DNA of 33,169 nt, taken from Minisyncoccota bacterium (lineage in GTDB: Bacteria > Patescibacteriota > Microgenomatia > Levybacterales > UBA12049). The translations under genes and the position numbers were made by a program. Below the pieces are notes generated by a model. The model was not told where the DNA came from. It saw nothing but the letters and a program-made list of their open reading frames with translations, and ran no database searches. The DNA lies in the NCBI GenBank assembly GCA_025449795.1, contig JANWIQ010000059.1, positions 1 to 33,169 of the forward strand, in the 5' to 3' direction. Below, piece by piece: positions 913 through 31,414 of the stretch (within the stretch, counting starts at the first letter, position 1; every line of letters starts with the position of its first letter).

Positions 913-1007
913 ATTTTTTGATTGTATAATATACTAACTTATTATACAGTGAAGAGGGGGTTGATCCTTTCCAGCAGAGTACTTCAGGTATATAATTCAT
1001 GGTAAAA

Positions 1008-1035
1008 GTCTATGAAAAAGTCTATGAAAAAGTCA
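1008..1035 (+). repeat. 12-bp tandem duplication spanning the start codon of the second GT4 gene
   Basis: GTCTATGAAAAA occurs twice (1008-1019 and 1020-1031) plus a partial GTCA. It gives MKKS MKKS and two in-frame ATGs (1012 and 1024). Confidence 0.9.
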
Positions 1036-4415: not shown

Positions 4416-4503
4416 CCTCATCACAGTCTTCTCACCACAAGGGCACTACCTTCGCAGAAGGGTCGCCTAAAAGGAGAAGAAGAGTAAGGAGACATGATAA
4501 TAG

Positions 4504-6440: not shown

Positions 6441-6482
6441 GCCTCAATTATCTTACTATGCTAGAATATAATAGTAAAGGAT

Positions 6483-7232
6483 ATGGGTATTTCGGCAGTT
6501 GTCCTCACAAAAAATTCTGAGAAGACAGTAGATGTTACTCTGGCCAGTCTTATCTGGTGCGATGAAATCGTTGTTATTGACGATAATTCAACAGACAATA
6601 CGCGAGCTGTTGCAAAAAAATATACTTCCAGAATTTTTATCCACACATTATCCGAAGATTTTTCTTCACAAAGAAATTATGGGTTAGAAAAAGCGAGACA
6701 AGACTGGATACTTTTTGTGGATAGTGACGAGGTAGTAGACGAGGCTTTACGAGAGGAAATTATTCTGAGAATAAAAAGTTTGTCTCAGGTCAACGGATAT
6801 TATATAAAAAGGGAAGACGCCATGTGGGGAAGGAAATTGTCATACGGGGAGACAAAAAATATGTGGCTTTTACGGCTTGCTAAAAAGGGAAGCGGGGTAT
6901 GGCAGGGAAAAGTGCACGAAGAATGGAAGATAATAGGAGAAAAAGGGAGACTTAGAAATCCCCTTTCGCACTTCCCTCACCCGAATGTGCATGATTTTCT
7001 TACTAGCATAAATAAATATTCCACCATCCGTGCAAAAGAACTTTATGAGAAAAAAGTAGGTGTATCCTGGATAGATGTTATTTTGTATCCAAAGGCAAAG
7101 TTTTTTCTCAATTATATTCTCAGACAGGGATATAAAGACGGCATTCCAGGATTTCTTGTAGCTATTTTAATGAGCTTTCATTCATTTCTCGTGAGAGGGA
7201 AATTATGGCAACTACAAAATTCTCACAAATAA
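6483..7232 (+). CDS. Glycosyltransferase family 2
   Basis: 249 aa. N-terminal GISAVVLTKNSEKTV...VVIDDNSTDNT and the FVDSDE (DxD) motif. AAGGA lies just upstream of the ATG. Confidence 0.8.
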   Translation: MGISAVVLTKNSEKTVDVTLASLIWCDEIVVIDDNSTDNTRAVAKKYTSRIFIHTLSEDFSSQRNYGLEKARQDWILFVDSDEVVDEALREEIILRIKSLSQVNGYYIKREDAMWGRKLSYGETKNMWLLRLAKKGSGVWQGKVHEEWKIIGEKGRLRNPLSHFPHPNVHDFLTSINKYSTIRAKELYEKKVGVSWIDVILYPKAKFFLNYILRQGYKDGIPGFLVAILMSFHSFLVRGKLWQLQNSHK

Positions 7233-8641
7233 CATATTTAATTTTCACCGCCATACTTACTACATTATTCTGCTTGGCTATCGGACTTAATCTTTCACCA
7301 CTTCTTCGTGGCCCTGCGCCATATCCACCGGAGTGGCAATGGGTATATCAATTTACCAATACTTTGCAAAGAGTGTGGGCGCCAGGGATAGTTGGGGTAT
7401 TAGGGATAGTAGGGTTATTGTATTTTGAAAAAAAACAACGAAAAGGATTTATATTCTTTGCTATTGTCTTTTTACTACTCTTACAGGTAAGTATATTGTA
7501 TTTCAGCAGGTCAGGTATAGCGGTAGTACTTGAAAGAATTATTAATCCCGGGATAACAGGATATTTTACTACTGCACTTTCTGTGCACAGCGTGGGAAAT
7601 TTTTTAGGAAGTTTCCAACAACAAGTAAGCCACTTTCCCATGCGGGCTGCTGACCATCCGCCTTTCGCGGTCCTTTTCTTTTCTTTAATTCTTTTAGCTA
7701 GCCAACAACTGTCATTTTTATTCCCTTTTGTGGAAGGGATTACTATTCACCATAGCGATATAGCACATATCTGGAGTAGTTTACTTGCCTTTCAAAAGTT
7801 GGCGGCACTTTTAAGTACAATACTTATTCCCTTCTTAAGTACACTTGTCATAGTGCCGTTGTATTACTTTACCAGAGTTTACTATGACCAAAAGACGGCA
7901 ATTCGTGCTGCCATGCTCTATAGTGTATTTCCGGCAATATCTCTTTTCCTGCCTGTAAATGATGTATTTTTAGGGATATTTGGGATGTTAGGTTTTTTGG
8001 AGGTATTGTTGGGTCTTCGACAAGCTCAGACAAAAAAAGCGTTTCTTTTCTATTTTTTTGCAGGAATATCTGTTGCCGTTGGCGCTTTTTTTAGTGCCTC
8101 CCTTCTAGCGGTGGTGGGAATGGTAGGGTTATTTTTTCTTTTATCGCCTCTTCCATCAAAGGAAAAGATTTTAGGGGGATTAGGGATTTTAGGGGGATTA
8201 GGGATATTACCAATACTTTTATTTATTTTTTATCACTTTAACACGATTAGTGTATTTATTGAAATTACGAAACTCCAGGCGAAGAGAAGTTATTTGCCAT
8301 GGGTATTTTATGACATATATGATTTCTTTATCTTTTCAGGAATCCCGGTACTTACTGCTTCCATACTGATTTTGTGGAAATTTCTTTCTCTTGCCAAAAA
8401 TAAAATCCACAATGATGTATTGATAATAAGTTTTTTCTTTATCCTTTTTCTTTTAGATATATGCGGTTTTTCCAGAGCCGAGACAGGAAGGATATGGATG
8501 CCATATATGCCTATATTAGCTATTATTGTAGCTGGGGTTTTAACAAAAAAAGGAATCACAACAAAAACTTTTGTGATAATCTTGGTACTGCAATTATTAC
8601 AGTTGTTAATAATGCAGGAATTTTGGGTTACACTTTGGTGA
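7205..8641 (+). CDS. Polytopic membrane protein, possible GT-C-type glycosyltransferase
   Basis: 478 aa with many TM helices. It overlaps the upstream GT2 gene by 28 nt. Its TGA stop (8639-8641) lies 1 nt before the next ATG. It contains an in-frame 18-bp tandem duplication (ILGGLG x2). Confidence 0.5.
   Translation: MATTKFSQITYLIFTAILTTLFCLAIGLNLSPLLRGPAPYPPEWQWVYQFTNTLQRVWAPGIVGVLGIVGLLYFEKKQRKGFIFFAIVFLLLLQVSILYFSRSGIAVVLERIINPGITGYFTTALSVHSVGNFLGSFQQQVSHFPMRAADHPPFAVLFFSLILLASQQLSFLFPFVEGITIHHSDIAHIWSSLLAFQKLAALLSTILIPFLSTLVIVPLYYFTRVYYDQKTAIRAAMLYSVFPAISLFLPVNDVFLGIFGMLGFLEVLLGLRQAQTKKAFLFYFFAGISVAVGAFFSASLLAVVGMVGLFFLLSPLPSKEKILGGLGILGGLGILPILLFIFYHFNTISVFIEITKLQAKRSYLPWVFYDIYDFFIFSGIPVLTASILILWKFLSLAKNKIHNDVLIISFFFILFLLDICGFSRAETGRIWMPYMPILAIIVAGVLTKKGITTKTFVIILVLQLLQLLIMQEFWVTLW
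8168..8203 (+). repeat. Perfect 18-bp tandem duplication inside a membrane-protein CDS
   Basis: ATTTTAGGGGGATTAGGG occurs twice (8168-8185 and 8186-8203), encoding ILGGLG ILGGLG in frame. Confidence 0.9.
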
Positions 8642-8642
8642 T

Positions 8643-10391
8643 ATGAAAAATTTGTATTTTGGTTTAATTGCTTTTGTTTTATTTGCTTTTGCAAGTATAT
8701 ATATTACTTTTCCTTTAATTTTCCACATGACAAATTATGTCACAGGGGAATTGGTTGTGTCATGGATTATGAATTGGAATATTCATGCAATTATGCATGG
8801 AGTGTGGGCGCAGCCAGGTGCCTGGCAGGCATTTTTTGATGCAAATATTTTTTACCCTTACCACAATACACTTGCATATTCCGATTTACTTTTATCATCA
8901 AGTATCTTTGCATTACCACTTTTTATATTTGTCCATGAGCCGGAATTGCCTTCCAATATTACTTTTATTTCTAGCCTTATTTTGTTGGGATTTTTTACTT
9001 ATATTCTTGTTTTTTATCTCACAAAAAATTTCTTTGCCTCTCTTCTTTCAGGATTGCTTATTATTTTTTCACCAGTAACGCTGGATAAGCGTTTTCACTT
9101 ACAAATCCTTGCTATAGAATGGGTACCACTTGCCTTACTATTTTTTCTACACTTTTTAAAAACCAAAAGATATAAATTTCTTATCTTGAGTTTGTTTTTC
9201 TTTGTTGTTCAAACTTATAACAGTTTCATGGCAGGATATTTTCTTGTTTTTTCCTATACCGGAGTAGGGTTATCCTATCTCGTGTCTAATGGGAAGAAAA
9301 TAGTTTCCCTTGTTACAAAAAAAACGATCCTATTCTCTCTTTTAGCTTTTGTTTTGATTTTTCCAATTATTGTTCCTTACTATCAAGTATCCCATGAATT
9401 TTCCTTTGTTCGGGATATTCGGGAAACTATTCATCTGGCCCTGCAACCTGAAGATTTACTGGTGACCAATGAAACAAGCAGATTAAAGCCAATACTATGG
9501 TTTTTTGACGCAAAACAATATCCCTCGTCTGCTGAAGTGAAGCCCGGGTTTTTAGGATTGATTTTTACAATACTTGCTCTTGTAAGTTTTACCTACATCT
9601 TCTTAAAGCAAAAATCAAAAAAAAGATTCTCGACAAGCCAGAATGACGTTACTCTCTTGGCATTTGTGGGTGTCGCATTATGGGGACTGGTATTAAGTTT
9701 GGGTCCGGCACTTCATATAGGTCGTCTTACTATTCACCATCCATTTTTAATCCCTTTACCATATGCTATAGCGTATTATGTCCTTCCCGGATTTCAGGGA
9801 ATACGGGATAGCTCACGTTTTGAAATGCTTTTTGTCATAAGTATTGCTATCGTAATAGGGATTGTCATTGATCAATTGCTTAAGAAAAGAAAACTTTACA
9901 TAAAAACTCTCGTTTGGACCGTACTATTAATCGCAGTTATGGGAGAGTTTGTGGGACCAATTAACTATGGAAGTGCTTATACTTTTGAAAACTTTCCACA
10001 AGTATATACGTGGATAGCAAAAAATACTCCTACAACTGCCGTGATTTTGGAAGAGCCAGTATACAACTGGGACAATAATCCTTTTGGTGACAATAGGGAA
10101 GTGTTGCGTGAATATTTTTCCACACTCCATTTTAGGAAGTTGATTAGTGGTGGAAGCGGATTCTCCCCTCCTCCATGGCAACAATTTGCCAAAAGCCAAT
10201 TCGCTAATTTTCCATCTCCTGCAAGCGTATTACAAGTAAAGAAGTACGGAGCAAATTATCTTATTGTGCACAAAGGTGAGTTTGATATTCTAAAAAAGAA
10301 TGGAGACTATGTATTATCTATGCTCTCCCAAAATTCCCATCTTCGATTTATAATAAAAGAAGGAGACGATTATGTATATGAAGTTAAATAG
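8643..10391 (+). CDS. Polytopic membrane protein with C-terminal soluble domain, possible GT-C-type glycosyltransferase
   Basis: 582 aa with an N-terminal multi-TM region and a roughly 170-aa hydrophilic C-terminus. It is tightly packed with its neighbours. Confidence 0.5.
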   Translation: MKNLYFGLIAFVLFAFASIYITFPLIFHMTNYVTGELVVSWIMNWNIHAIMHGVWAQPGAWQAFFDANIFYPYHNTLAYSDLLLSSSIFALPLFIFVHEPELPSNITFISSLILLGFFTYILVFYLTKNFFASLLSGLLIIFSPVTLDKRFHLQILAIEWVPLALLFFLHFLKTKRYKFLILSLFFFVVQTYNSFMAGYFLVFSYTGVGLSYLVSNGKKIVSLVTKKTILFSLLAFVLIFPIIVPYYQVSHEFSFVRDIRETIHLALQPEDLLVTNETSRLKPILWFFDAKQYPSSAEVKPGFLGLIFTILALVSFTYIFLKQKSKKRFSTSQNDVTLLAFVGVALWGLVLSLGPALHIGRLTIHHPFLIPLPYAIAYYVLPGFQGIRDSSRFEMLFVISIAIVIGIVIDQLLKKRKLYIKTLVWTVLLIAVMGEFVGPINYGSAYTFENFPQVYTWIAKNTPTTAVILEEPVYNWDNNPFGDNREVLREYFSTLHFRKLISGGSGFSPPPWQQFAKSQFANFPSPASVLQVKKYGANYLIVHKGEFDILKKNGDYVLSMLSQNSHLRFIIKEGDDYVYEVK

Positions 10392-10491
10392 GCAACAAGT
10401 TTTCCTTACCGGATTTGTTTTATGGGTTTTAGTTGTATTTATTTTGTATATCCAGTTTTTACTTTGTAGAGGACATATATGTTTACGCTAG
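10372..10491 (+). CDS. Possible 39-aa single-TM small ORF, or the displaced N-terminus of the next gene
   Basis: AGGAG (10361-10365) lies 6 nt before ATG 10372. The ORF encodes MYMKLNRQQVFLTGFVLWVLVVFILYIQFLLCRGHICLR. It ends 13 nt after the ATG of the next gene, in another frame. It is not in the ORF track because it is under 60 aa. Confidence 0.25.
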   Translation: MYMKLNRQQVFLTGFVLWVLVVFILYIQFLLCRGHICLR

Positions 10492-12077
10492 GATTACTTA
10501 TTGGCATTTACGCATACAGTATTTTTCTTCTGGGATTATTGCACCTCTTGTATGTACCAGTGGTGTGGATTTTTACTTTTGGCTTTATTGGTGGGAGTAT
10601 CTATTGCTACCGAAAGAAATTAGAAGAAATTAGTAAGATAAAAAGGGTGAGAGAAAGAAAAATAGGTACGCCCTCTTTTCTTCTGTTATGTATTCTTATT
10701 GTCCAGGCAGGAGTAAATTTGATTGGTGTTTTAGGTCCAGAGCTGGGTTTTGACGCATTATGGTACCACCTTACTTTACCTAAGATTTATCTCATGGGGC
10801 ATGCAGTGTCTTATATCCCAGGAGGCCTTTTTCTGTATTCCACTATGCCAAAACTTTTAGAGCTGCTTTATATAGGCGGGTTGTCCTTTGGGTCTGCGAT
10901 ATTTCCAAAATTAATTCATTTTGGTTTTGGATTATTGACACTTGTTGTACTGTACCAAATAGCAAGAAGATTTTTGTCTCGACCTATGTCTTTTTTGGTT
11001 CTGGTAATTTTCTATGCAAATTTGGTAGTGGGATGGGAATCTATAAGCGCATACATTGACCTTGGTAGGACATTTTTTGAGTTGCTTTCTTTTTCTGCTC
11101 TGCTTTCATGGATAGAAACCAAAGATAAAAAGTTTTTTTATTATAGCGCGCTTTTTATAGGATTTGCTATTACAACCAAGCTTCTTGCTGTTGGTTCGTT
11201 GCTTTTATTTCTTATCCTTATATACATGGTATTACGAAGAAAAAATATACCTTTGTTGCGGCCTTTTCTGTCATATATGATGATTACTCTTCTTATTCCA
11301 CTTCCCTGGTTAGTTCTTTCTTTTATTAATACAGGTAATCCCGTCTATCCATTTTTTTCTTCAACCTATCCAATTTCCTTGCCCTGGCAGCTTATTAACC
11401 CACGCTATTTTGTGACTAGTTTTTGGAATTTATTTCTTTATTCACCGGATCCAATTAACCCAATCTATCTTATGGTATTGCCCATTTTTTTTGTATACAT
11501 GGGGAAGTGGTCATATGAATTGCGTCTTATTTTTTTCTATAGCATAGGTGGATTCGTGTTGTGGTACATTACTCCACAAACAGGCGGAGGACGTTTTATT
11601 ATTCCCTATTTGCCTCTTTTATCACTTATGAGTGTGTTAGCGATCTTATCACTTGGAAAAAAAAGAATAAAACAGTTTCTTGTTATTGTTGCGATTGTAC
11701 TGGCACTAGTTTCCATTGGATATAGGGGCATTGCAAATGCAAAGTTTGTTCCGGTTATTCTGGGAAAAGAGACAGAAAGTCATTTCTTGGCAAAACACCT
11801 CAATTTCTCTTTTGGGGATTTTGCCGATACAGATGGGTATTTTGCAACACATATAAAGTCTACAGATACTGTTTTACTCTACGGATTCCATAATGAATAT
11901 TACGTAGATTTTCCTTTTATCGATGCGACTTTTGTAAAAAAAGGCGATGAATTTAGCTATATTGCTGCGCAAAATACTGCACTTCCAGCACGTTTTCGGA
12001 ATTGGAATTTGGTGTATATCAACCCAATTACCCATGTAAGCCTGTATAGTATTGGAGGGATTCCATGGACATATTAA
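10479..12077 (+). CDS. ArnT/PMT-like (GT-C fold, GT39/GT83-like) membrane glycosyltransferase
   Basis: 532 aa and polytopic. An early loop motif LGPELGFDALWYHL is followed by many TM helices and a C-terminal soluble tail, as in PMT_2/ArnT-like proteins. GAGG lies 6 nt upstream of the ATG. Confidence 0.55.
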   Translation: MFTLGLLIGIYAYSIFLLGLLHLLYVPVVWIFTFGFIGGSIYCYRKKLEEISKIKRVRERKIGTPSFLLLCILIVQAGVNLIGVLGPELGFDALWYHLTLPKIYLMGHAVSYIPGGLFLYSTMPKLLELLYIGGLSFGSAIFPKLIHFGFGLLTLVVLYQIARRFLSRPMSFLVLVIFYANLVVGWESISAYIDLGRTFFELLSFSALLSWIETKDKKFFYYSALFIGFAITTKLLAVGSLLLFLILIYMVLRRKNIPLLRPFLSYMMITLLIPLPWLVLSFINTGNPVYPFFSSTYPISLPWQLINPRYFVTSFWNLFLYSPDPINPIYLMVLPIFFVYMGKWSYELRLIFFYSIGGFVLWYITPQTGGGRFIIPYLPLLSLMSVLAILSLGKKRIKQFLVIVAIVLALVSIGYRGIANAKFVPVILGKETESHFLAKHLNFSFGDFADTDGYFATHIKSTDTVLLYGFHNEYYVDFPFIDATFVKKGDEFSYIAAQNTALPARFRNWNLVYINPITHVSLYSIGGIPWTY

Positions 12078-13258
12078 CAGGGCTTTTTATTAGTGTTTTT
12101 CTTGTCTTTTTACCTCTTGGCCAGTTGATGCGAATTCCTTTTCAAGGGTTTACTATCGTAGGACTGGATGCTGTTGTTTGTTTGACAGCAATTGTGTGGA
12201 TAATAAAAACATTTAAAAAGTGGGAAAAGCCGAAATTACTTTTTCTTCCAGTAAGTATCTTTTTAGCTGCAGGCATTTTTTCTTTGCTTGCCAATGTTAT
12301 GTGGTTGAGTGGAAATGAGCTCTTTATTTCATGGTTATACCTTGTAAGGTTGGCTTCATTCATGGCTTTTTTATGGATTGCAAAAGAAATCTCAAAAAGG
12401 TCGCCAGCACTCATGCAAAAACTCTTACTGGTTGGTGGGGGAATTGTAATGGTGTTGGGACTACTGCAATATATATTTTTTCCATCGTTACAACCTTACT
12501 TATATCTTGGATGGGATAACCATTTTTACCGGGTATTTTCAACTTTTTTAGACCCCAATTTTGTGGGAGCATTTTTGGTATTGTATTTCTTTTACCTTGC
12601 ATTCCTTTTATTGCAAAATTATCAACACCAACAAAAGAGATGGCTTTTTGGAATGATTTCCTTCCTTAGTTTACTTGCGGTTTTCCTAACATACTCACGA
12701 AGCGCTTATCTTATGTTGGGAGTCGGCATTGTTATTTCTCTCTGGAGTTTAGGACAAAAAAAACTCATTCTTGGTGCAGTTGGAATACTCGCTGTTATTA
12801 TTTTGTTATTTGGGGTATTCCACCGTTATGGTGAAGGAAATAATTTACTCCGGACGGTATCTATTGAGTCTCGCTTAGGAAGCATGACCACTGCGCTTAC
12901 CATTTTTACTAAAGAGCCAGTATTTGGTACCGGATTTGACAGTTACCGATACGCCCAAAGGAGATATGGATTTTTAGGAGGTAATATTTGGGAAGCTACT
13001 CATGCAGGCGCAGGGACAAGTAATAGCTTTTTATTCGTACTTGCGACGACTGGCATAGTAGGATTTGGTGCATATTTTTTCTTGCTGTATAGTCTTTTCC
13101 AACAAGCGAAAGTTATATCAAAGAAAAATAAACTGTGGGGAGTATTGCTATGCGTGTCTCTTTTCTCCCTATGTGTTGATGCACTTTTTGAAAATACTCT
13201 TTTTTATCCGAGCATTATGTTGTGGATATTTACTTTGATAGGAATTGCCTCACCCTAG
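12065..13258 (+). CDS. O-antigen ligase/polymerase-like (Wzy_C domain) membrane protein
   Basis: 397 aa and polytopic. The central motif FLTYSRSAYLMLGVG and a periplasmic loop with THAGAGTSNSFLFVLATTGIVG are typical of the O-antigen ligase family. It overlaps the upstream gene by 13 nt. Confidence 0.7.
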   Translation: MDILTGLFISVFLVFLPLGQLMRIPFQGFTIVGLDAVVCLTAIVWIIKTFKKWEKPKLLFLPVSIFLAAGIFSLLANVMWLSGNELFISWLYLVRLASFMAFLWIAKEISKRSPALMQKLLLVGGGIVMVLGLLQYIFFPSLQPYLYLGWDNHFYRVFSTFLDPNFVGAFLVLYFFYLAFLLLQNYQHQQKRWLFGMISFLSLLAVFLTYSRSAYLMLGVGIVISLWSLGQKKLILGAVGILAVIILLFGVFHRYGEGNNLLRTVSIESRLGSMTTALTIFTKEPVFGTGFDSYRYAQRRYGFLGGNIWEATHAGAGTSNSFLFVLATTGIVGFGAYFFLLYSLFQQAKVISKKNKLWGVLLCVSLFSLCVDALFENTLFYPSIMLWIFTLIGIASP

Positions 13259-13261
13259 CCC

Positions 13262-13276
13262 TCTCCTAAGAGGAGA
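13262..13276. terminator. Short hairpin between the convergent O-antigen-ligase-like and Ig-like genes
   Basis: TCTCCT-aag-AGGAGA lies in the 41-bp convergent gap. It has a weak stem and no clear T-tract. Confidence 0.25.
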
Positions 13277-13299
13277 AGGAAACCAAGGAAAACTTATTC

Positions 13300-17392: not shown

Positions 17393-17797
17393 TTAGTGCT
17401 TGATGCGTTGGGAGAGGCGTAACTCGAGGACGCTTCTTCGAATTTCGTCTTGCAGCATGTCCAAGTCTTGTTGGGATGTCTTGTCCTTCATTGCCTTTTC
17501 TGCCCTTTTGATTGCTTCTTCTGCTTCATGAGCTGAAGCTTCTCTGGCATGGAGTGCAAAGTCTGCAAGAATCGTGACAGATTTTTCCGTCACTTCTATA
17601 AAGCCGCCATCTATTGCCAGGGTTTCTTCTTTACCATTATGTTTTATCACAACAATACCTGGTGCTACCTGGGTAACAAGTGGTACGTGTTGGGGGAGAA
17701 TTGCTCATTCTCCGGTAGTTGTGGGAACAACAACTTCATCAGCTTCCTGGTCTATGAGGGTTTCTTCTGGAGTAATAATTTGGATATGAAGTGACAT
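17393..17797 (-). CDS. atpC: F1 ATP synthase epsilon subunit, interrupted by an in-frame TGA at codon 31
   Basis: ATG 17795-17797 gives MSLHIQIITPEETLIDQEADEVVVPTTTGE, then TGA (17705-17707), then the same frame gives AILPQHVPLVTQVAPGIVVIKHNGKEE... through to 17393. The joined 134-residue sequence matches the epsilon pattern (GE-x-[AG]-I-L-P-x-H-x-P-L). The ORF track only reports the 85-aa tail from GTG 17650. Confidence 0.8.
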
Positions 17798-17807
17798 ACA
17801 TGTTTTT

Positions 17808-17905
17808 CGGGGTCCTGCCGTCTCGTTCATCCCGCAGATGCTCCGTTCTGCGCCTTCGGCTAAAGAACGTGCGCGTCAGCAGGAGCCCTTCACTTGCGTC
17901 GCCCC
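17808..17905. repeat. GC-rich structured repeat (copy X2) inserted between atpD and atpC
   Basis: Starts with CGGGGTCCTGCC (17808-17819) and contains CCTTCGG and CTTGCGTCGCCCC blocks shared with 14239-14328. The outer arms GGGTCCTGCCGTC and GTCAGCAGGAGCCC are imperfectly complementary, and the inner pair CGTTCT/AGAACG is complementary. Confidence 0.6.
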
Positions 17906-17915
17906 TTATATATTT

Positions 17916-23462: not shown

Positions 23463-24209
23463 TCAATGGGTTTCGGAAGGGCTAGCCTCATCACTGTGAT
23501 GGGCTGTCATAAGAATACTCATAAAGCCCATAGTCAAAATTGCGAAAACCAATGCCTGGACTAGTGCCACAATTATCTCAAGCGCCATAAATGGCAATGG
23601 GAGAAGGAAAGCAAAAATTCCTGAGATAGTTGAAAGTACGACCTCTCCCGCAAATATATTACCAAAAAGTCGAAAAGAAAGCGAGATGATATTAGTAAAT
23701 ACAGATAGAAGTTCTAGGATACCCACAAAAAGAAAAATAGGATTCCATGAAAGATACCGAGCAATGTGGCCTTTTACCCCAACAGCACGTATTGCCAACA
23801 CTTGGGTTGCAACGGTAGCGACAAGTGCGAGCGCAAGGGTAGTATTAATATCGCTAGTCGCACTTCGCAGAAGCGGGATAGCATCTTCGCCTTTATGAAT
23901 AAAAATAGTGCCGAATCCAGGGAAAAGAGCAGTAATATTGGCTACCAGGATAATAGTAAAAAATCCCATAAACCATGGAAAGATTTTTTTTGCATTGTGT
24001 CCGGAAATTGACTCAGTAAGAGAATATAGTCCATCAATGACGTATTCTACTGCGTTTTGAAACATACCAGGAGTCTTCGTGAGGTTTTTGCTGAGTATGA
24101 TGACACCGCTGACAATAAGTACATCCACAATAGTGGTATGCAAAAGCGTGTTGGTAAAAGGGAGTGGGCCAACCTGAAAAAGAATTTCTGGTGCTAATGG
24201 CGCTGCCAT
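23463..24209 (-). CDS. atpB: Fo ATP synthase a subunit
   Basis: 248 aa and polytopic. Contains the signature LSFRLFGNIFAGE with the essential Arg. Confidence 0.95.
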   Translation of the reverse strand: MAAPLAPEILFQVGPLPFTNTLLHTTIVDVLIVSGVIILSKNLTKTPGMFQNAVEYVIDGLYSLTESISGHNAKKIFPWFMGFFTIILVANITALFPGFGTIFIHKGEDAIPLLRSATSDINTTLALALVATVATQVLAIRAVGVKGHIARYLSWNPIFLFVGILELLSVFTNIISLSFRLFGNIFAGEVVLSTISGIFAFLLPLPFMALEIIVALVQALVFAILTMGFMSILMTAHHSDEASPSETH

Positions 24210-24255
24210 AAAGGAATTTTATCAGTAATAGCTTGAATGCACAATATATAGAATT

Positions 24256-24687
24256 TTAGTGGAAGGTTCGTCGTGAAGTTCTTTTTTGGGCAGATTTTTC
24301 CATTCGCGGTGCATACTTTTCTGCATGAAGGAGTGCAGCAGCTGGTCCTTTTGTAAGATCGATAAGAGCTAATCGATCTGCGCGTTGTTGTGTAAGGTGC
24401 AGGATTTTAGTTTCTGCGTCGCCATTTTTTTCTCTCGTATTCACTCCTGCAAAGATATAGATATCCCATGCTGGGGTATATCCGGGGTGTAGTTCCACGA
24501 GGGCATGCCTTATATGCCTTCTTTGTTGCCGAAAAACATCTTGATAGAGCCCTTCCAAAGCGGCACCATCTGTAGTGATATAGTTTATCGATCCATCTCC
24601 CAATGGAGGAGATGGGGTTTCTCCAGGATGCATGGTACTCTTTTTACGGTAGTACATTTGTTTTAAAATTGTGTAAGAGTTTGTCAT
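24256..24687 (-). CDS. Hypothetical soluble protein, 143 aa, family not recognised
   Basis: ATG at 24685-24687. It has no TM helices and is basic at both termini. It ends 46 nt upstream of the atpB start, in the position where atpI is often found, and is divergent from the DnaE-like gene. Confidence 0.5.
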   Translation of the reverse strand: MTNSYTILKQMYYRKKSTMHPGETPSPPLGDGSINYITTDGAALEGLYQDVFRQQRRHIRHALVELHPGYTPAWDIYIFAGVNTREKNGDAETKILHLTQQRADRLALIDLTKGPAAALLHAEKYAPRMEKSAQKRTSRRTFH

Positions 24688-24723
24688 GTTCTTTCGATTC
24701 TTATATTGTTATTACCTATTATT

Positions 24724-24739
24724 CTGTCTCTCCTTACAG
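24724..24739. promoter_or_regulatory. CTGT-N8-ACAG palindrome (SOS-box-like) in the divergent promoter region
   Basis: TCTGTctctccttACAGA lies 22 nt upstream of ATG 24762. It has the form of the gammaproteobacterial LexA box, but the spacer is not AT-rich. Confidence 0.25.
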
Positions 24740-24761
24740 ACGCTGGGTATCGTTTGGTATC

Positions 24762-27431
24762 ATGTCCTCAGAGCGTGTTATCGCTGATTTCCAACCGCTT
24801 AATATTTCTTCATCTTACTCATTTTTAACCGACGAACCCGCAGTCTCTTCGCCAGGAAAACTTGCATCTGTTCTTTCCCAATATGGGTATATGCATTTTC
24901 CTCTTTCGGATACCACATTACTTTCCGAGGGAAGAGTTTTTCAATCTTCTGAAAAACATCAGCTTCGTCCTATTCCGGGACTAAGATTTTCCATGGATGT
25001 TTATTTTGGTCCTCCACAGGAAGGATTTATTTTGCCAAGAAATGATGAGGGCCTCCGCAGATTACATGGTGTATCTTCCCGTAAAAATATCAAAGGAGAA
25101 GGGATAACACCTGATGATATCCATAAAAATAAAGAAGATTGGTATACTTTTTTTACAGGGCCTATCTCTCCCTATGAGGTGTCAACACTGCTTTTGCTAG
25201 AAAATGTGTTTCGGGCAGTCAAGGATCCTCAGGAAATAGTCGCAGCACATCCTGCATTTGCTGGTTTTCTCCACGACAGCAAGAAAATTGTTGTTGCCCC
25301 AGAAGTGAGGATTGCTTTGCCGGAGGATACATGGAAATTGGCATGGCTTGCAAAAGCGAGTGGAAAAAGTCTTCCGTACGAGCTGGCTACGTATGCATTG
25401 AAAACTCCTGATGAAATGCGTCTTTTGTACGCTCATTATAAAGATGCACTTGGACTTTCCGCAGAAATTGCAAAAAACATTACTATCGTTAAACCATTAC
25501 CTCCTGATATACAGCCAGAAACGGTAAAACCAGGGTGGACGCCTGAAGCATATTTACGCTTGCTTGCCCATAATCTTGCTGGCCTTCCTGAAAATGCACA
25601 TCTCAGTGAACGGATTAAAGAGGAAGTAACAGAAATAACCGAAGCGAGATATGCAGGACTTGTATCAGCCATATTTTTAGTGAAGGAAGTCATCGAATTC
25701 TGCAAGTCTGCCAAGATCCCTATCAAAACAACAGGAAGTGCAAACAACAGTGTGCTGCTTTCGCTTTTGGGAGTTACCCAAGTCGAGCCAGATGAAGCAA
25801 ATGATTGTGATTTTTCTCGATTTCTCAATAGTGAACGCGTTGAAAAGCCGGATATTGATATGGAAGTCGGATACAAAGACAGAGAAGCTATCCTTGCTTT
25901 TTTGAAAAGAAAATATGGAGCGCACGCTGCAGAGATAATTATTCCCCACTTCATGAAAGACAAAACGGTCGAGCAATATATACGAAGAAAGCATATTCCT
26001 GCGATACCCAACGAAAGGATAGTACAGCTTGTTGCTGAAGAGATTCCTTTTAAGCTACAGCCTCACGGATCCAAGGTTGTGCTTCTTGGAAATGCCCCAT
26101 TTCGAAAACTCGGTGAAGAAGGGAAGTTAGTTGCTGATATTGACAGAATAGACGCGGAAAAGATTTTTGATTATACGGCTTTAGACTTTTTGCCACGTCA
26201 AGGGCCACAGCGATTACACCTAGCACAAGAATTTGCAAGAAAAAGACGTACATCCATTGTTGATACTCCTAATAACTCCGCTGTCATGAGACGAATATTT
26301 TCAGGAGATACTATGGGTATCCCTGATGTAGAAAGTCCTCATATGCAACAAACTCTGCAAAAATTTCATCTGGTAATCACGCAGCCGACCCGCGAAACAC
26401 TTGCAGATGCAATAGCAATATCGAAAGTCCGAAAAGGTGTGCGGGATAGATACCTTTCGTATAGGTATAGGGGTAAGGAATTATTGAGCACCGACGTGAT
26501 GCATGATTTAGGATTAAGAAGTCCGGTCATTTATCACCAGGAAGATTTGGCAATTGTCGCACGTGCTGCAGGCTTTTCACTGTCACAAGAAGAAGCAGTA
26601 AGAAAAATGTTGAGTGATAGGGATGTAACGGCGGGTGAGAAAGAAGAAATTATCCAAAAAATCATTGTAGGACTAGGGGAACATGGTTATAGCAAAAGAG
26701 TACAACAAGAACTTCGGATGCAAATGGAAAGCTATGTAGGATATGTATTGGTGCGTGGGCATGCACTGTCACTTGCTCATGGAGCCGAACAGGTTGCCAG
26801 GCATGCGGTATATGACCCGGTGGGTTTTTCTGCTGCAATACTCACCACGGTTGCAGAGTACTGGAATAGAAGCGATTATACTTTCCAGGGATACGTAAAT
26901 GATGTGCTTCGCCATAAAGTACAAATGGATTTTTCTTCAACAAGAAATAACATCCCCGAAACTCCTGAGATATGGCAAAATAAAATTGCAGTAAGTACTT
27001 CTATGCTTCGGGCAGGATTTGGGGGAAAATTGCCTGATGATTTTGCCCAACGCTACGCACTTTGGGTAGATACGCTAAAAGAGTGGAAAAAAGGAGCATA
27101 TGCAACTGCGGACTTAGTACATCTGGAGTGGGAGCTTTTTCATGCTTCTTTTACCCATAATCCTATTCTGCGTTTCGATAGTAACGTACGCTTTGATCCT
27201 GGACGCGACAAACAGGAAATAATAGTGCAGCCAATCGCAGCTCGTGAATTGTCAGAATCCGAAGTCTATCTCTTAACGCTAGATAGTGAAACAGTTTTCC
27301 GCGCTTCAATGCCGACCAGTAAAGGGAAAGGAGAAGATTTTTCTTATCCGTTTCTTAAAGTCCGGGTGCAAAGAAGCAATGGAGGATCAGGGGGTTGGGA
27401 AATAAAAGAAATACTTAGTGCGCATGCTTAA
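24762..27431 (+). CDS. Divergent C-family DNA polymerase (DnaE paralog; DnaE2/ImuC-like) with degenerate PHP domain
   Basis: 889 aa from ATG 24762. It aligns by eye with the neighbouring DnaE at these points: FQPLNISSSYSFLTD vs FVHLHNHSEYSLLDG; TTGSANNSVLLSLLGVTQVEPD vs GRGSAAGSVVSYCLRITDIDP; FLNSERVEKPDIDMEV..KRKYG vs FLNPLRPSAPDIDLDF..TEKYG; ALDFLPRQG vs KMDFLGLRN; GIPDVESPHM vs GIFQLESPGM; GYVLVRGHALSLAHGA vs GYGFNKAHAACYATIA. Confidence 0.85.
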   Translation: MSSERVIADFQPLNISSSYSFLTDEPAVSSPGKLASVLSQYGYMHFPLSDTTLLSEGRVFQSSEKHQLRPIPGLRFSMDVYFGPPQEGFILPRNDEGLRRLHGVSSRKNIKGEGITPDDIHKNKEDWYTFFTGPISPYEVSTLLLLENVFRAVKDPQEIVAAHPAFAGFLHDSKKIVVAPEVRIALPEDTWKLAWLAKASGKSLPYELATYALKTPDEMRLLYAHYKDALGLSAEIAKNITIVKPLPPDIQPETVKPGWTPEAYLRLLAHNLAGLPENAHLSERIKEEVTEITEARYAGLVSAIFLVKEVIEFCKSAKIPIKTTGSANNSVLLSLLGVTQVEPDEANDCDFSRFLNSERVEKPDIDMEVGYKDREAILAFLKRKYGAHAAEIIIPHFMKDKTVEQYIRRKHIPAIPNERIVQLVAEEIPFKLQPHGSKVVLLGNAPFRKLGEEGKLVADIDRIDAEKIFDYTALDFLPRQGPQRLHLAQEFARKRRTSIVDTPNNSAVMRRIFSGDTMGIPDVESPHMQQTLQKFHLVITQPTRETLADAIAISKVRKGVRDRYLSYRYRGKELLSTDVMHDLGLRSPVIYHQEDLAIVARAAGFSLSQEEAVRKMLSDRDVTAGEKEEIIQKIIVGLGEHGYSKRVQQELRMQMESYVGYVLVRGHALSLAHGAEQVARHAVYDPVGFSAAILTTVAEYWNRSDYTFQGYVNDVLRHKVQMDFSSTRNNIPETPEIWQNKIAVSTSMLRAGFGGKLPDDFAQRYALWVDTLKEWKKGAYATADLVHLEWELFHASFTHNPILRFDSNVRFDPGRDKQEIIVQPIAARELSESEVYLLTLDSETVFRASMPTSKGKGEDFSYPFLKVRVQRSNGGSGGWEIKEILSAHA

Positions 27432-28135
27432 TTTCCTTCTTTACGGGATGGGAGAACTACTAAATGCCATTGTGGTTTTTTTACCGTGCCAGCGAGAAGA
27501 CGCTTGCCTGTTGTTTTTAAGAGTTCTTTTAGTTCGGGACGCCGTACTGTTGTGGAGCGTATTACTTCTACGCGCGCGTTCACTTCGTCATCCTCTTTTA
27601 ACCGAAGCGTTGTGCGGACCGACCGACGGAATGCATCTTCCAAAATATGCCGTGCTTCTGGATGGCCATCAATATTTACTCGTAACAGTAGGGTATCATC
27701 ATGAGTTACCGCAGCAAAATTTTCATTTCCTAAGGATGCGTGCAATTTGTCTGCATCAAATTGATAGACAGGAAATATATTTAACACAGCTTTTTCTTCT
27801 CCAATAAATTCAAATCCACGAAAGTCTGTTCTTCCTGCGGCAAGAGCTTTTAAGTCATCTCCCAGCAACTCCTTTTGTGCCTGAAGTTGTTTGACTTCTC
27901 GGTCCAGATGTGCCACTCTTCTTCCTCTTTCTACAAGCAACGTAAGAAGATTTCTATGGTGAGACATGAGGATATCCGGCAAAACCCCTTTGTCGGTGCG
28001 TAGATTAACATCTGGTATAGGAGTTCCCCACGAATCAAATCGTGCACTTTCCAATTGCGTACTGGTAATAGCATCTCCTTTTTCTTGCGGAAATTGCTGC
28101 AAGACGGTATTTTCCTGAGTTCCTTGTTGTTCCAC
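27428..28135 (-). CDS. Hypothetical protein, 235 aa, family not recognised
   Basis: The ORF starts with GTG at 28133-28135, so the start is uncertain; the next Met is about 56 codons in. It has a coiled-coil-like stretch HLDREVKQLQAQKELLGDDLKALAAG. It lies 63 nt downstream of the dnaE stop on the same strand. Its stop overlaps the stop of the DnaE-like gene (27428-27431). Confidence 0.5.
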   Translation of the reverse strand: MEQQGTQENTVLQQFPQEKGDAITSTQLESARFDSWGTPIPDVNLRTDKGVLPDILMSHHRNLLTLLVERGRRVAHLDREVKQLQAQKELLGDDLKALAAGRTDFRGFEFIGEEKAVLNIFPVYQFDADKLHASLGNENFAAVTHDDTLLLRVNIDGHPEARHILEDAFRRSVRTTLRLKEDDEVNARVEVIRSTTVRRPELKELLKTTGKRLLAGTVKKPQWHLVVLPSRKEGN

Positions 28136-28198
28136 TGCACTCTTTTAGTACACAAAATTGATAGAGCGAAAAGAATTGGGAAAGAGAAAGAAAAGAAA

Positions 28199-31100
28199 TT
28201 ATACTGCTATGGGTTTTTTAATAGCGTTGACAATAATCACCGGCTTATCATTTTTCTGATCCAGCTTTCCTTCAAATACCAATACCGTGTCGGTGAGGAG
28301 AATATCGCGATATAATTCATATACTTTTGGGAAAATAATGCACTCTATCGCAAGACCTTTCTCGTCACTGATAGAAAGGAATGCCATTTCTGCTTGCGTT
28401 TTCTTGGTAAAAATACGTTTTACATTTTCTACTATGCCACCTACTGTCACCTGTACCCCGTCATTTTGTCCTTCTAAAAGTTCAAATTCGTGACTGATCA
28501 TTGTCTTAATTTGTTGAAGATTTTCTGCTTGCGGATGGGCGGTAAGGTAAAATCCTAAAAATTCTTTTTCGAATGCAAGCTTTTCTCCAAGTGAAAAATC
28601 CTCAATCTCTAGCTCGGAAATAGTTGAAGAACCCTTTTTTACTTCGGTGTCCTCATCAAATAATGATTCTTGGCCTTCTTGTTTTTGCTTTTTTTGCTTG
28701 GTAATGCGTTCGGTTGTTTCGGAAAGAGATGCGAGAAGCAATGCGCGATTGCCAAATGCATCCATTGCGCCTGCCTTGATAAGGCTTTCCAGTGTTTTTT
28801 TATTTACCGCACCCAATTCCACCCGCTCACAAAAATTATTAAAAGAAGTAAATGGTCCTTGTGCTCTCGCCTCAAGAATAGTACGTATTGCGGCTTCCCC
28901 AACATTTTTAATTGCAGAGAGGCCAAAACGAATCTTAATATCCTCTTCAATGGAAAAATCTGCATCTGAAGTATTAATATCAGGAAGCAGCACGGGGATA
29001 GCAAGCCTTTTGCATTCTGCAACCGCCTGTGCAATTTTTTCTGATTTTGCAGGACCTGTTGTGCCTCGAGATTCTGCAGTAAAAAGTGCGGTCATAAATT
29101 CAACAGGATAGTGCGCTTTTAAATAGGCCGTCCGGTAGGCAATCGTTGCATAACAGGCGGCATGGGCTTTATTAAATCCATATCCAGCAAAAGGTGCAAT
29201 AAGCTCAAAGATTTCTTCAGCCCTCTTTTGTGAAAGACCTCCTTTTACCGCGCCTTCAAGGAATTTTTCCTTTTGTTTCTTCATTTCCGAGGGAATTTTC
29301 TTTCCCATTGCTTTACGGAATTTATCAGCATCCAACCAGGAATAGCCGGCAAGCGCAATGGTAGTAAGGAGTACGTCGTCCTGATAGGTGAGAATGCCAT
29401 AGGAATTTGCGAGGATTTCTTCCAGGCGAGGATCGGGAAAATCGATAAGCTCTGGATTATGTTTTCTTGCAATGAAAGATGGGATATTTTGCATAGGTCC
29501 GGGGCGGTAGAGAGCCACCATTGCCATAAGATCAAAAATCGTATTTGGTTTTAGCTCTTTAATATATCGGCGCATGCCAGGGGATTCAAGTTGGAAAATG
29601 CCCGTTGTTTCTGCTGAGGAGAGAAGGGTATATGTTGCTTGATCATCTACTGGTAGTTTGGAAATATCTATGGTAATGCCTTTATGTAATTTGATAAACC
29701 GTAGTGCTTCTTCGATAATAGTAAGATTGCGAAGCCCCAAAAAGTCCATTTTTAAAAGGCCAACGCCATCTTCGCCTACCGTATACATGTCGTATTGCGT
29801 AACAACTTTTTCGCCGCCATTTGGTTCTCTTTGGATAGGGACATACTCGGTAAGTGGTTTATCTGCAATCACGACACCTGCAGCATGTACGGAGGCATGT
29901 CTGACAACGCCTTCAATTTTTTTAGAAAGGTCGATAAGCTTTTTTGTTTCCGGCTCCTGCAAATATGCCCTCTTGAGGTCTGGACTTTGGTCCATTGCGC
30001 TGTCGAGTGTCATCGCATGTCCTTGCCACCCCAATGGAATCATTTTCGAAATTCTATCTGGGCCAGCATAGGGCATACCCAGTGCGCGTCCAACGTCCCT
30101 TACGCTTCCTTTTGCTTCCATAGTACCAAAGGTAATAATCTGTGCTACCTTGTCGTCACCATATTTTTCCGTTACGTATTGAATAACTTCCTCACGTCTA
30201 ATATCTGCAAAATCTAAGTCTATATCTGGTGCCGAAGGTCGAAGTGGATTTAAAAATCGTTCAAAAGGTAACTTAAAGAAAAATGGGTCAATATCAGTAA
30301 TGCGAAGACAGTAGCTTACTACTGAGCCTGCTGCAGATCCTCGTCCCGGTCCAACGCTTATCATGTGGTCTTTTGCCCAATTTACAAAGTCCGCAACCGT
30401 AAGAAAATAGGTGGAGTATCCTTTGGAGGTAATCGTAGAAAGCTCATATTGTATCCGTCCGGTAATTTCGGGGGTTATTTTCCCATATCGTTTTTTGGCT
30501 CCTTCCCACACAAGCTCTTCCAAATATGCATCTTCACTTTTTCCATCTGGTGTAGCAAATTTTGGCATTACCCATTTGCCAAGAGTAATTTCTACATTGC
30601 ACCGATCGGCAATCGCGACACTATTTTGTAATACCTCAGGCATTTGTGGAAAAGCGGCTTGCATTTCCTCTGCTGATTTTAGGTAAAAATCCGGAGAATC
30701 TATCATACTTAATTTTCTTCCCTTGTCGTCGATGGTTGTTTGGGTCTGAATGCAAAGAAGGATTTCTTGTGCCTGTGCGTCATCTTTATGTGAGTAATGG
30801 TTGTCGTTGGTTGCAACCATGGGAATTCCAAGTTTTTTAGAGAGTGCAATAAGGCGTGGATTTAAAACTTCTTGCGGTGGGACATGGTCGTGTTTTTGCA
30901 ACTCCAAGTAGAAATGGTCAGGACCAAAAATCTCTGCAAGTTTTTTGGCACGTTTTTCTGCTTCTATTTGTTGGTTATTCAAAAGTGGTTCGGATACAAA
31001 GCCATTCACACATGCGGAAAGACAAATAAGTCCATCGTGATACTCCTCCAGGAGCGCAAGGTCGGTACGGGGTTTGTAATAATAGCCCTCCAAATGTGCC

Positions 31101-31414
31101 TTTGAGACAATCTTCATGAGATTTTTGTATCCGATATTGTTTTCTGCAAGAAGAATGAGGTGGTTATATCCTTTTTCATCTTTTACCAATCTGCTGCCGG
31201 CAGTAATATAAATTTCACATCCAATAATGGGTTTTATTCCTGCCTCTTTGCATGCTTTGTAAAAGTAAATAACTCCATACATTGAGCCATGGTCGGTAAT
31301 GCTTAATGCTTTTTGGCCTACATCCTGGGCCCGTTTTATCATCTGTTTTATTTTGGAAAGGCCATCAAGAAGGGAATATTCTGAGTGGTTGTGTAAATGG
31401 ACAAAATCTGGCAT
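28199..31414 (-). CDS. dnaE: DNA polymerase III alpha subunit (canonical replicative DnaE)
   Basis: 1071 aa. It has intact PHP ligands (FVHLHNHSEYSLLDG, ITDHGSMYG), the catalytic PDIDLDF and MDFLGLRNL motifs, a clamp-binding-like QESLF, and a C-terminal OB-fold region. Confidence 0.97.
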   Translation of the reverse strand: MPDFVHLHNHSEYSLLDGLSKIKQMIKRAQDVGQKALSITDHGSMYGVIYFYKACKEAGIKPIIGCEIYITAGSRLVKDEKGYNHLILLAENNIGYKNLMKIVSKAHLEGYYYKPRTDLALLEEYHDGLICLSACVNGFVSEPLLNNQQIEAEKRAKKLAEIFGPDHFYLELQKHDHVPPQEVLNPRLIALSKKLGIPMVATNDNHYSHKDDAQAQEILLCIQTQTTIDDKGRKLSMIDSPDFYLKSAEEMQAAFPQMPEVLQNSVAIADRCNVEITLGKWVMPKFATPDGKSEDAYLEELVWEGAKKRYGKITPEITGRIQYELSTITSKGYSTYFLTVADFVNWAKDHMISVGPGRGSAAGSVVSYCLRITDIDPFFFKLPFERFLNPLRPSAPDIDLDFADIRREEVIQYVTEKYGDDKVAQIITFGTMEAKGSVRDVGRALGMPYAGPDRISKMIPLGWQGHAMTLDSAMDQSPDLKRAYLQEPETKKLIDLSKKIEGVVRHASVHAAGVVIADKPLTEYVPIQREPNGGEKVVTQYDMYTVGEDGVGLLKMDFLGLRNLTIIEEALRFIKLHKGITIDISKLPVDDQATYTLLSSAETTGIFQLESPGMRRYIKELKPNTIFDLMAMVALYRPGPMQNIPSFIARKHNPELIDFPDPRLEEILANSYGILTYQDDVLLTTIALAGYSWLDADKFRKAMGKKIPSEMKKQKEKFLEGAVKGGLSQKRAEEIFELIAPFAGYGFNKAHAACYATIAYRTAYLKAHYPVEFMTALFTAESRGTTGPAKSEKIAQAVAECKRLAIPVLLPDINTSDADFSIEEDIKIRFGLSAIKNVGEAAIRTILEARAQGPFTSFNNFCERVELGAVNKKTLESLIKAGAMDAFGNRALLLASLSETTERITKQKKQKQEGQESLFDEDTEVKKGSSTISELEIEDFSLGEKLAFEKEFLGFYLTAHPQAENLQQIKTMISHEFELLEGQNDGVQVTVGGIVENVKRIFTKKTQAEMAFLSISDEKGLAIECIIFPKVYELYRDILLTDTVLVFEGKLDQKNDKPVIIVNAIKKPIAV

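Follow-up and report, generated by a model that had tools for sequence, protein, structure and literature searches.

A Stripped-Down DnaE-Like Protein and Its Sparsely Sampled Family in Candidate-Phyla-Radiation Bacteria

Four groups are recognised among the C-family DNA polymerases, DnaE1, DnaE2, DnaE3 and PolC (Timinskas 2014, PMC3919608; 2026, PMC12926913), and the 2014 survey also lists a few unassigned proteins under the name 'DnaEX' (PMC3919608). A PHP domain and a tandem helix-hairpin-helix domain, (HhH)2, are nearly universal in the family (PMC3919608). Both surveys are based on complete genomes (PMC3919608, PMC12926913), and the more recent one never mentions Patescibacteria (PMC12926913). 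The gene considered here lies at positions 24762 to 27431 of a 33,169-nt stretch (contig JANWIQ010000059.1, assembly GCA_025449795.1, from a Minisyncoccota bacterium), which I will refer to as the window. It encodes a DnaE-like protein of 889 amino acids, hereafter the window copy, and its neighbour is a canonical dnaE. The reading I favour, with a probability of roughly 0.55, is that the sequence describes a functional but stripped-down C-family (DnaE-type) polymerase, an accessory enzyme that would work alone, without proofreading and independently of the clamp.

The state of a PHP domain can be read from nine metal-ligand positions, taken here from Barros 2013 (PMC3666897, Table 1). The ligand consensus is H H D/H H E H C/H D/N H (PMC3666897), and an active PHP proofreader shows the nine-residue motif HHDHEH[C/H]DH (PMC12926913, PMC3666897). 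The positions are filled in Taq by H11, H13, D20, H47, E72, H95, C145, D212 and H214, and in E. coli by R10, H12, D19, F44, D69, H83, G134, D201 and R203 (PMC3666897). Barros 2013 proposed that the PHP fold is retained for stability (PMC3666897).

Catalytic Centre, PHP Domain and Lost Modules

The features of the window copy, and the canonical dnaE with which it was compared, are as follows.

24762-27431, plus strand: gene of the 889-aa DnaE-like polymerase, stop codon included (open reading frame, Pfam, family alignment, AlphaFold2 model)
24762-25376, plus strand: degenerate PHP-like domain, aa ~1-205, with 0/9 metal ligands (ligand table, Foldseek)
25734-25739, plus strand: nucleotidyltransferase GS motif, G325-S326, in TGSANNS as against GRGSAAGS of DnaE (invariant in 20/20 family members and in canonical DnaEs)
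25848-25868, plus strand: PDIDMEV (P363-V369), with D364 and D366 equivalent to E. coli D401 and D403 and a Glu at the D405 position (alignments)
26184-26186, plus strand: D475 in ALDFL, equivalent to E. coli D555, preceded by A473 at the K553 position (alignments)
26202-26996, plus strand: fingers domain, aa ~481-745, with R614-K615 (R709/R710), G666-H667 (H760) and YHQE in place of YQEQ (Pfam, alignments)
26997-27197, plus strand: short helical remnant replacing (HhH)2, clamp-binding motif and linker (MAFFT gap list, no HHH_6 match)
27198-27428, plus strand: C-terminal OB-like fold, aa ~813-889, with which the protein ends, leaving no C-terminal domain (AlphaFold2 model, DnaE alignment, Foldseek)
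28199-31414, minus strand: canonical dnaE, 1071 aa, the comparator, with 9/9 PHP ligands, HHH_6, OB fold and QESLF at aa 915-919, nt 28658-28672 (Pfam, NCBIfam, alignment)

The strongest evidence for a polymerase comes from the catalytic centre. D364, D366 and D475 were matched to E. coli D401, D403 and D555 by four methods (BLASTP, an HMMER profile against 2HNH, MAFFT and hhalign), PDIDMEV pairing with PDIDLDF and ALDFL with KMDFLGL of DnaE, and all three aspartates are invariant in the 20 members of the family described below. The Pfam polymerase core (DNA_pol3_alpha, PF07733) scores 84.6 bits, above its gathering score, and the fingers (DNA_pol3_finger, PF17657) reach 26.5 bits, where the gathering score is 22. 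An initial annotation, made from the letters of the window alone, had located two catalytic aspartates in PDIDMEV and the third at 26184-26186 and had recognised the fingers by their motifs; alignment to DnaE finds the aspartates present and in register, and each of these assignments stands.

The PHP domain tells the opposite story with respect to its metal site. In a MAFFT alignment of the window copy, its family and nine canonical DnaE or DnaE2 sequences, the ligand positions of the window copy hold N14, S16, T23, a gap beside D50/T51, R75, E87, G, E181 and R183 (0/9), as compared to H8, H10, D17, H42, E67, H85, C135, D204 and H206 (9/9) in the window's canonical DnaE. The motif of an active PHP proofreader is therefore absent. 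The initial annotation had concluded from the N-terminus that every PHP metal ligand was lost, a conclusion that proves right and extends to ligand positions 5 to 9. The N-terminal substitutions it cited were correctly aligned, but two of them (H to P and E to S) sit at positions that are not ligands.

The fold itself has been kept. In the AlphaFold2 model, most of residues 10-130 have a predicted local distance difference test (pLDDT) score above 90, and the PHP chimera 4gx8 is among the Foldseek matches (E = 3e-8). Pfam gives the PHP model (PF02811) an E-value of 0.24 in the window copy and detects it in 15 of the 20 family members. Degeneration of the metal site is family-wide: the HxH pair is kept in 7 of the 19 other members and the Glu of position 5 in about 12, while none of the 19 keeps position 4, position 6, the Cys of position 7 or the His of position 9, the last being usually Arg. 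The most extreme loss in the family is that of the window copy.

Over its full length, the AlphaFold2 model built from the family alignment has a pLDDT of 87.8 and a predicted template modelling score of 0.86. Foldseek matches it to the Pol III alpha subunits of Taq, E. coli and Mycobacterium tuberculosis (E = 1e-29 to 1e-33, TM 0.64-0.72; 2HPI/3E0D at E = 1e-33), and hhalign extends the homology with DnaE from the PHP domain into the OB domain (probability 100, E = 5e-84). Within this frame two segments have gone, as judged from the gaps in the MAFFT alignment. Residues 455-493 of the window's DnaE, the tip of the thumb, have no counterpart, and the position of the deletion matches the reduced thumb of PolC and Thermotogae DnaE3, which lack the helix-loop-helix of Taq 513-552 (PMC3919608). 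DnaE residues 866-935 are likewise deleted (70 aa, comprising the second HhH, QESLF and the linker). The first HhH hairpin is also unrecognisable, and the Pfam model HHH_6 (PF14579) finds no match in any of the 20 family members, nor in the C-terminal region of the window copy at E ≤ 10.

The initial annotation had found no clamp-binding motif by eye and had described a short OB-like tail. A search of the 889-aa protein for the pattern Q..[LMIV][FLWY] gives no match, and more is missing than the motif, since the entire (HhH)2/clamp-binding segment is gone. The tail is borne out: its beta-strands (residues 817-885) form a beta-barrel in the AlphaFold2 model, and it aligns with the OB domain of DnaE (FTHNP versus LTAHP). 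The Foldseek matches of the tail to OB-fold proteins are weak (E = 0.1-0.4) and individually non-significant. According to the model and the alignment, the protein stops at the OB fold and so has no tau-binding C-terminal domain, and Pfam finds no match to the DnaQ exonuclease (PF00929) in it.

Two other members of the family, P0242 (aa 774) and P0246 (aa 794), carry QLELF or QLALF, resembling a clamp-binding pentapeptide, just ahead of FTHNP; the window copy reads LEWELF there and has no Gln. QLxLF strings of this kind were considered as clamp motifs and rejected, as they align with the EKEFLG helix of DnaE and do not occur in the window copy.

The limits of the gene were set as follows. A single long open frame on the plus strand runs from 24603 to 27431. 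The ATG at 24762 was taken as the start, because the other family members begin with M..ER at the same point of the family alignment and because the 159 nt of in-frame extension (24603-24761) have non-coding codon usage (score -0.06). The frame and coordinates from that ATG to the TAA ending at 27431 were verified. A run of 889 stop-free codons would be expected by chance at this composition with a probability of about 9e-26, and the other five frames contain 24 to 66 stops. The codon-usage score of the gene (0.152) falls in the host range (0.06-0.27), and codon usage and GC content at third codon positions are host-like in the gene and in the two open reading frames (ORFs) beside it, ORF143 and ORF235.

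A Divergent and Sparsely Sampled Family

Relatives of the window copy were sought by a word-indexed search of 5.8 billion proteins and by HMMER run exhaustively on 1.84 billion cluster representatives. The former yielded generic DnaEs alone, none scoring higher than 98 bits. The latter returned 19 full-length relatives of 800-900 aa, with 22-29% identity from end to end (E = 1e-81 to 1e-26), clearly apart from the generic DnaEs, whose partial matches scored about 100 bits. No homolog closer than 29% identity appeared in either search or in scans of GTDB genomes and JGI metagenomes. Nor was an ortholog above about 30% identity found, though at least 20 relatives have a DnaE 77-90% identical to that of the window. 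On viral contigs, a sub-alignment matched only generic phage DnaEs (24-28% identity), and patterns specific to the family were found nowhere in IMG/VR.

All 19 relatives are singleton clusters. Their hosts seem to be poorly sampled, because housekeeping genes on the same contigs are singletons as well. Two of the relatives carry names, 'PHP domain-containing protein' (in a metagenome-assembled genome, MAG, of Candidatus Woesebacteria) and 'DNA polymerase III alpha subunit'. Close relatives of the window's canonical DnaE are labelled Patescibacteria, Levybacteria and similar, and on the basis of these labels the host of the window is taken to be a bacterium of the candidate phyla radiation (CPR), of Microgenomates type.

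Among the 20 aligned sequences, 14 columns are invariant: E288, G325, S326, S330, P363, D364, D366, Y385, H435, D475, K615, G666, H667 and Y706. Eleven of these hold residues that are also invariant in the canonical DnaEs compared, including the three aspartates, G-S...S and the H760 equivalent, and eight invariant positions beyond the three aspartates and GS are identical or similar to core residues of canonical DnaE. Conservation in the family thus appears, so far as an alignment can tell, to be concentrated on the polymerase centre. The mean identity within the family is 28.5%, as compared to 48% among the DnaE1s examined. With Pfam, the Pol3 core and fingers are recognised in 20/20 members, PHP in 15/20, and HHH_6 and the OB domain in 0/20.

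The place of the family among C-family polymerases is less easily read. The best NCBIfam model for all 20 members is 'error-prone DNA polymerase' (NF004225), with a best member E-value of 3.6e-82, and none of the 20 was shown to reach an NCBIfam cutoff. The window copy scores 126 bits with NF004225 against a cutoff of 939, 113 against 1260 with the best DnaE model, and 108 against 434 with TIGR00594. In a neighbour-joining tree the family is monophyletic in 100/100 bootstraps and is sister to, not within, four DnaE2 examples in 98/100, but both groups lie on long branches, making long-branch attraction likely, and the 'PolC' outgroup is probably a DnaQ-fused DnaE1. The family is 21.2% identical to the DnaE2 examples and 20.8% to DnaE1.

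The sequences taken together suggest a distinct, fast-evolving and sparsely sampled C-family lineage in CPR (Microgenomates-type) bacteria. A description of it was not found in the full-text literature on DnaE or C-family polymerases of CPR/Patescibacteria, and the family appears to be undescribed within the limits of the literature searched. I would go further only tentatively, with the odds somewhat against it, and regard the family as a fifth C-family lineage, largely or wholly confined to the CPR, defined by a PHP fold free of metal, a short-thumbed Pol3 core and an OB fold, without (HhH)2, clamp motif or C-terminal domain.

An Insert between dnaE and atpB

On one side of the polymerase gene is the canonical dnaE, followed by gatB, and on the other an F-type ATP synthase operon starting with atpB (23463-24209). 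Within the interval the following features were recognised.

24213-28211, no strand assigned: insert of ~4.0 kb comprising ORF143, the polymerase gene and ORF235, replacing 79 nt between dnaE and atpB (blastn against L002)
24256-24687, minus strand: ORF143, an orphan, divergent from the polymerase gene (codon score 0.106)
24681-24709, plus strand: sigma-70-like promoter match, TTGTCA-17-TATTGT, lying 53 nt ahead of the start codon at 24762 (weak evidence)
27428-28135, minus strand: ORF235, an orphan, in convergent orientation to the polymerase gene, with a 4-nt overlap at that gene's stop (codon score 0.189)

Sigma-70-like matches are no more numerous in the region than chance would give. Neither ORF143 nor ORF235 has a match in PHROG or PADLOC, or in Pfam or NCBIfam at E ≤ 0.01. 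An AlphaFold2 model of ORF235 from its single sequence is unusable (pLDDT 44.6). The one similarity recorded for ORF235, a weak one (27% over 106 aa), is to an ORF without annotation at 7377-8132 of L006, two genes upstream of the family member there.

The insert is best appreciated by comparison with related genomes. In the closest relative (L002, GCA_964648325.1; DnaE 90% identical) the gap between dnaE and atpB is empty, 79 nt at 13204-13282. The gap holds a HAD hydrolase in L003 (13275-14045; DnaE 84% identical), unrelated ORFs of 145 and 578 aa in L090 (10216-12466; DnaE 85% identical) and a 53-aa ORF in L091 (10277-10438; DnaE 80% identical). The two ORFs of L090 were considered as decayed orthologs of the polymerase and rejected, since they show no similarity to it. 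Because its content differs among relatives, the site between dnaE and atpB can be regarded as a cargo hotspot. At the insert, neither flanking repeats (direct or inverted) nor a tRNA or integrase was recognised, and the reading of the insert as a mobile element was rejected on that account. The polymerase gene can be regarded as accessory cargo in this variable hotspot, probably acquired horizontally.

The same comparison bears on the origin of the gene. The initial annotation had called the protein a paralog of DnaE. It is a DnaE homolog, but not a local duplicate: a recent inverted duplication of the adjacent dnaE is at odds both with the ~21-29% identity of the proteins and with the empty site in L002, and the gene, which sits at a hotspot of variable insertions, is instead a member of a separate family.

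The seven family loci examined share no conserved partner gene. Two of them adjoin rpsF-ssb-rpsR-ychF (L004, 100-2184; L008, 3039-5096), and the member in the Woesebacteria MAG lies 6 kb from an atp operon (L007, 19091-22694), as the window copy likewise lies near ATP synthase genes; these repeated neighbourhoods could reflect recurrent placement or old synteny. Elsewhere the neighbours include PIN, AbiEii, a PD-(D/E)XK nuclease, a recombinase zinc-ribbon protein (Zn_ribbon_recom) and helix-turn-helix (HTH) proteins of the XRE type. Among the scanned ORFs of the window and of the seven loci, no Pfam domains of imuA, imuB, RecA, Y-family polymerases or LexA were found, a distant genomic site being possible. 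The window contains a DnaE1-type gene and no PolC.

Some observations concern the neighbouring genes themselves. The canonical DnaE of the window (1071 aa) stops right after its OB fold, with no tau-binding C-terminal domain, and it is free of inteins, which are present in the DnaE orthologs P0133 and P0136 (~1500 aa). The gene atpC (F1 epsilon, 17396-17797, minus strand) is 85% identical to its L002 ortholog and has an in-frame TGA at codon 31 (17705-17707), a Leu codon in L002, which may reflect an error in the sequencing, a nonsense mutation or readthrough. A GC-rich spacer of 118 nt (17798-17915), without an Rfam match, separates atpD from atpC, genes that abut in L002. In L002, gatC-gatA is duplicated in tandem ahead of gatB (5159-8632). 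Farther away, at 73-13258 of the window, is a large envelope-glycosylation cluster, with GT4 and GT2 glycosyltransferases, YfhO-like, PMT_2-like and Wzy_C O-antigen-ligase-like proteins and several unannotated ORFs of ~390-580 aa.

Possible Roles and Comparison with Known Polymerases

If the favoured reading is correct, the protein would hold a primer-template by way of its palm, fingers and OB fold and add deoxynucleoside triphosphates through two-metal catalysis by D364, D366 and D475. The PHP domain would do no editing, and the protein would dock neither on the beta clamp via the canonical motif nor on tau. With clamp and tau docking lost, it would be expected to work outside the replisome, in distributive, low-fidelity, short-patch synthesis (repair, gap-filling or damage tolerance), and chromosome replication would be left to the adjacent canonical DnaE. 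I infer, then, an exonuclease-deficient, distributive enzyme independent of clamp and tau, in a short-patch or damage-tolerant role. The initial annotation had proposed a potentially active, specialised polymerase without proofreading, rather than a pseudogene, and that proposal fits the intact ORF, the host codon usage, the AlphaFold2 fold and the invariant core, activity being a prediction. Several findings weigh against it. The R362 equivalent is Thr in the window copy and Ser, Thr, Val, Ala or Leu in all family members but one. The D405 equivalent is Glu in the window copy and variable in the family (T, D, S, A, L, R and others), although D405 has been called 'absolutely conserved' in DnaE1-3 (PMC3919608). 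At the N757-K758 equivalents the window copy has V-R, and most family members have V-E. From these alignments, the active site would thus seem to have surroundings unlike those of every described DnaE group. The window copy, moreover, keeps 51 of the 69 columns (74%) that are conserved in at least 80% of the family, the lowest figure of the 20, and it lacks two features conserved in the family, the K553 equivalent (K473A) and YQEQ (YHQE). Finally, two soil metagenome runs hold the sequence, as fragments of 260 nt and 175 nt at 100% identity and low depth, and they provide no population variants and no RNA evidence.

These findings can be accommodated in other ways. Simple decay to a pseudogene, or an ORF open by chance, might be suspected from the strong divergence and the weak Pfam signals for PHP and OB, but is effectively refuted by the open frame, the codon bias, the conserved family and the confident fold. 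A more serious rival is relaxed selection on the window copy: the family would be active, now or once, and this copy, recently acquired cargo, would be catalytically impaired with its frame still open. Its retention of conserved columns (74%, others 76-97%), the loss of the K553 equivalent (A473), of two of three YQEQ positions and of all remaining PHP ligands, and its location in a hotspot of fast turnover are all as expected from decay of this sort. The 889 codons without a stop or frameshift are not, nor are an in-frame codon bias as strong as that of housekeeping genes and a confident AlphaFold2 model. The window copy also keeps all 14 family-invariant residues, though by construction of that set, and it is no clear outlier, since P0252-P0254 retain 76-78%. 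I consider relaxed selection unlikely, serious as it is.

It is also conceivable, but a little harder to credit, that the protein has been repurposed, its Pol-beta-like nucleotidyltransferase centre turned to a non-templated role, or the whole serving mainly as a DNA-binding scaffold, perhaps in mobile or defence islands with ORF143 and ORF235. The altered R362, D405 and N757/K758 equivalents would make sense in such a protein, as would the absence of the thumb tip and of the duplex-binding (HhH)2 domain, the fast evolution of the family (28% mean identity versus 48% for DnaE1) and the PIN, AbiEii, PD-(D/E)XK nuclease, Zn_ribbon_recom and XRE-type HTH neighbours at other loci. However, no neighbour is common to all seven loci, ORF143 and ORF235 have no counterpart there apart from the one match of 27% over 106 aa, and PADLOC matches, family patterns in IMG/VR, and terminal repeats or an integrase at the insert were all sought and not found. 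Templated synthesis is served by the fingers, the OB fold and the equivalents of H760 and R709/R710, and all of these have been kept. That the protein is a divergent mutasome polymerase of the DnaE2 (ImuC) type, recruited by a partner bearing a clamp motif, is distinctly improbable. NF004225 is the best NCBIfam match of all 20 members, the tree places DnaE2 examples as sister group (98/100), the Glu at the K758 position is common to most of the family and the DnaE2 examples, and a degenerate PHP, the lack of a C-terminal domain and co-occurrence with DnaE1 are shared features. Yet the NF004225 score is 126 bits against 939, identity to DnaE2 (21.2%) is no higher than to DnaE1 (20.8%), the tree suffers from long branches and an outgroup that is probably no true PolC, imuA, imuB, RecA, Y-family and LexA genes are lacking in the window and beside the other members, and DnaE2 keeps both (HhH)2 and D405.

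A functional accessory polymerase, if that is what the gene encodes, would be of interest on several counts. Were it catalytically active, a DnaE-type enzyme could synthesise DNA without a duplex-binding/clamp-binding module or a proofreader, and organisms of minimal repair capacity would have a mobile, fast-evolving, low-fidelity repair or mutator polymerase. The family offers a natural minimal DnaE with which to test what the (HhH)2 and thumb-tip modules add to C-family function, and a test case both for a PHP fold kept for stability alone, as Barros 2013 proposed, and for the source of accessory or error-prone synthesis in bacteria with reduced genomes. More practically, some proteins that now go under the names 'PHP domain-containing protein' or 'DNA polymerase III alpha subunit' ought to be left out of any count of replicases.

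It remains to set the family beside the described groups. The Pol3 core, evident in both sequence and fold, the three catalytic aspartates, which are absolutely conserved among C-family polymerases, and the PHP domain place it in the C family, from whose usual architecture it departs in having no tandem (HhH)2. It resembles DnaE1 (E. coli 2HNH, Taq 2HPI/3E0D and the window's dnaE) in fold (TM 0.64-0.72), the three aspartates, GS, the H760 equivalent, the fingers and the C-terminal OB, and E. coli DnaE1 in particular in the Arg at PHP position 9 and in a PHP fold without metals. It differs from DnaE1 in PHP ligands (0/9, versus 4/9 in E. coli and 9/9 in the window's DnaE), in having no thumb tip, (HhH)2, segment with the internal clamp motif or tau-binding C-terminal domain, in its ~21% identity and in falling below every equivalog cutoff of NCBIfam.

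The likeness to DnaE2/ImuC lies in an accessory position beside DnaE1, a degenerate PHP metal site, the absence of a C-terminal domain and of a canonical clamp motif, the Glu at the K758-equivalent position (in the family) and the sister placement in the neighbour-joining tree. Unlike DnaE2/ImuC, the family has no (HhH)2, does not conserve the D405 equivalent, has no imuA/imuB or PolY/RecA partner nearby, falls far below the NF004225 cutoff, is smaller (800-900 aa versus roughly 1000-1100 aa) and resides in small, AT-rich genomes of the CPR, those with DnaE2/ImuC being large and GC-rich. PolC, which has a DnaQ exonuclease inserted in its PHP domain and an N-terminal OB fold, is set apart by the lack of a PF00929 match in the window copy and by the C-terminal position of the OB fold there. 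Thermotogae DnaE3 has in common with the family a shrunken, inactive PHP and a thumb without the helix-loop-helix, the latter shared also by PolC (PMC3919608). DnaE3 and PolC, however, keep (HhH)2 and are essential replicases, DnaE3 being paired with PolC, and Thermotogae DnaE3 is without the OB fold (PMC3919608), which the 20-member family keeps.

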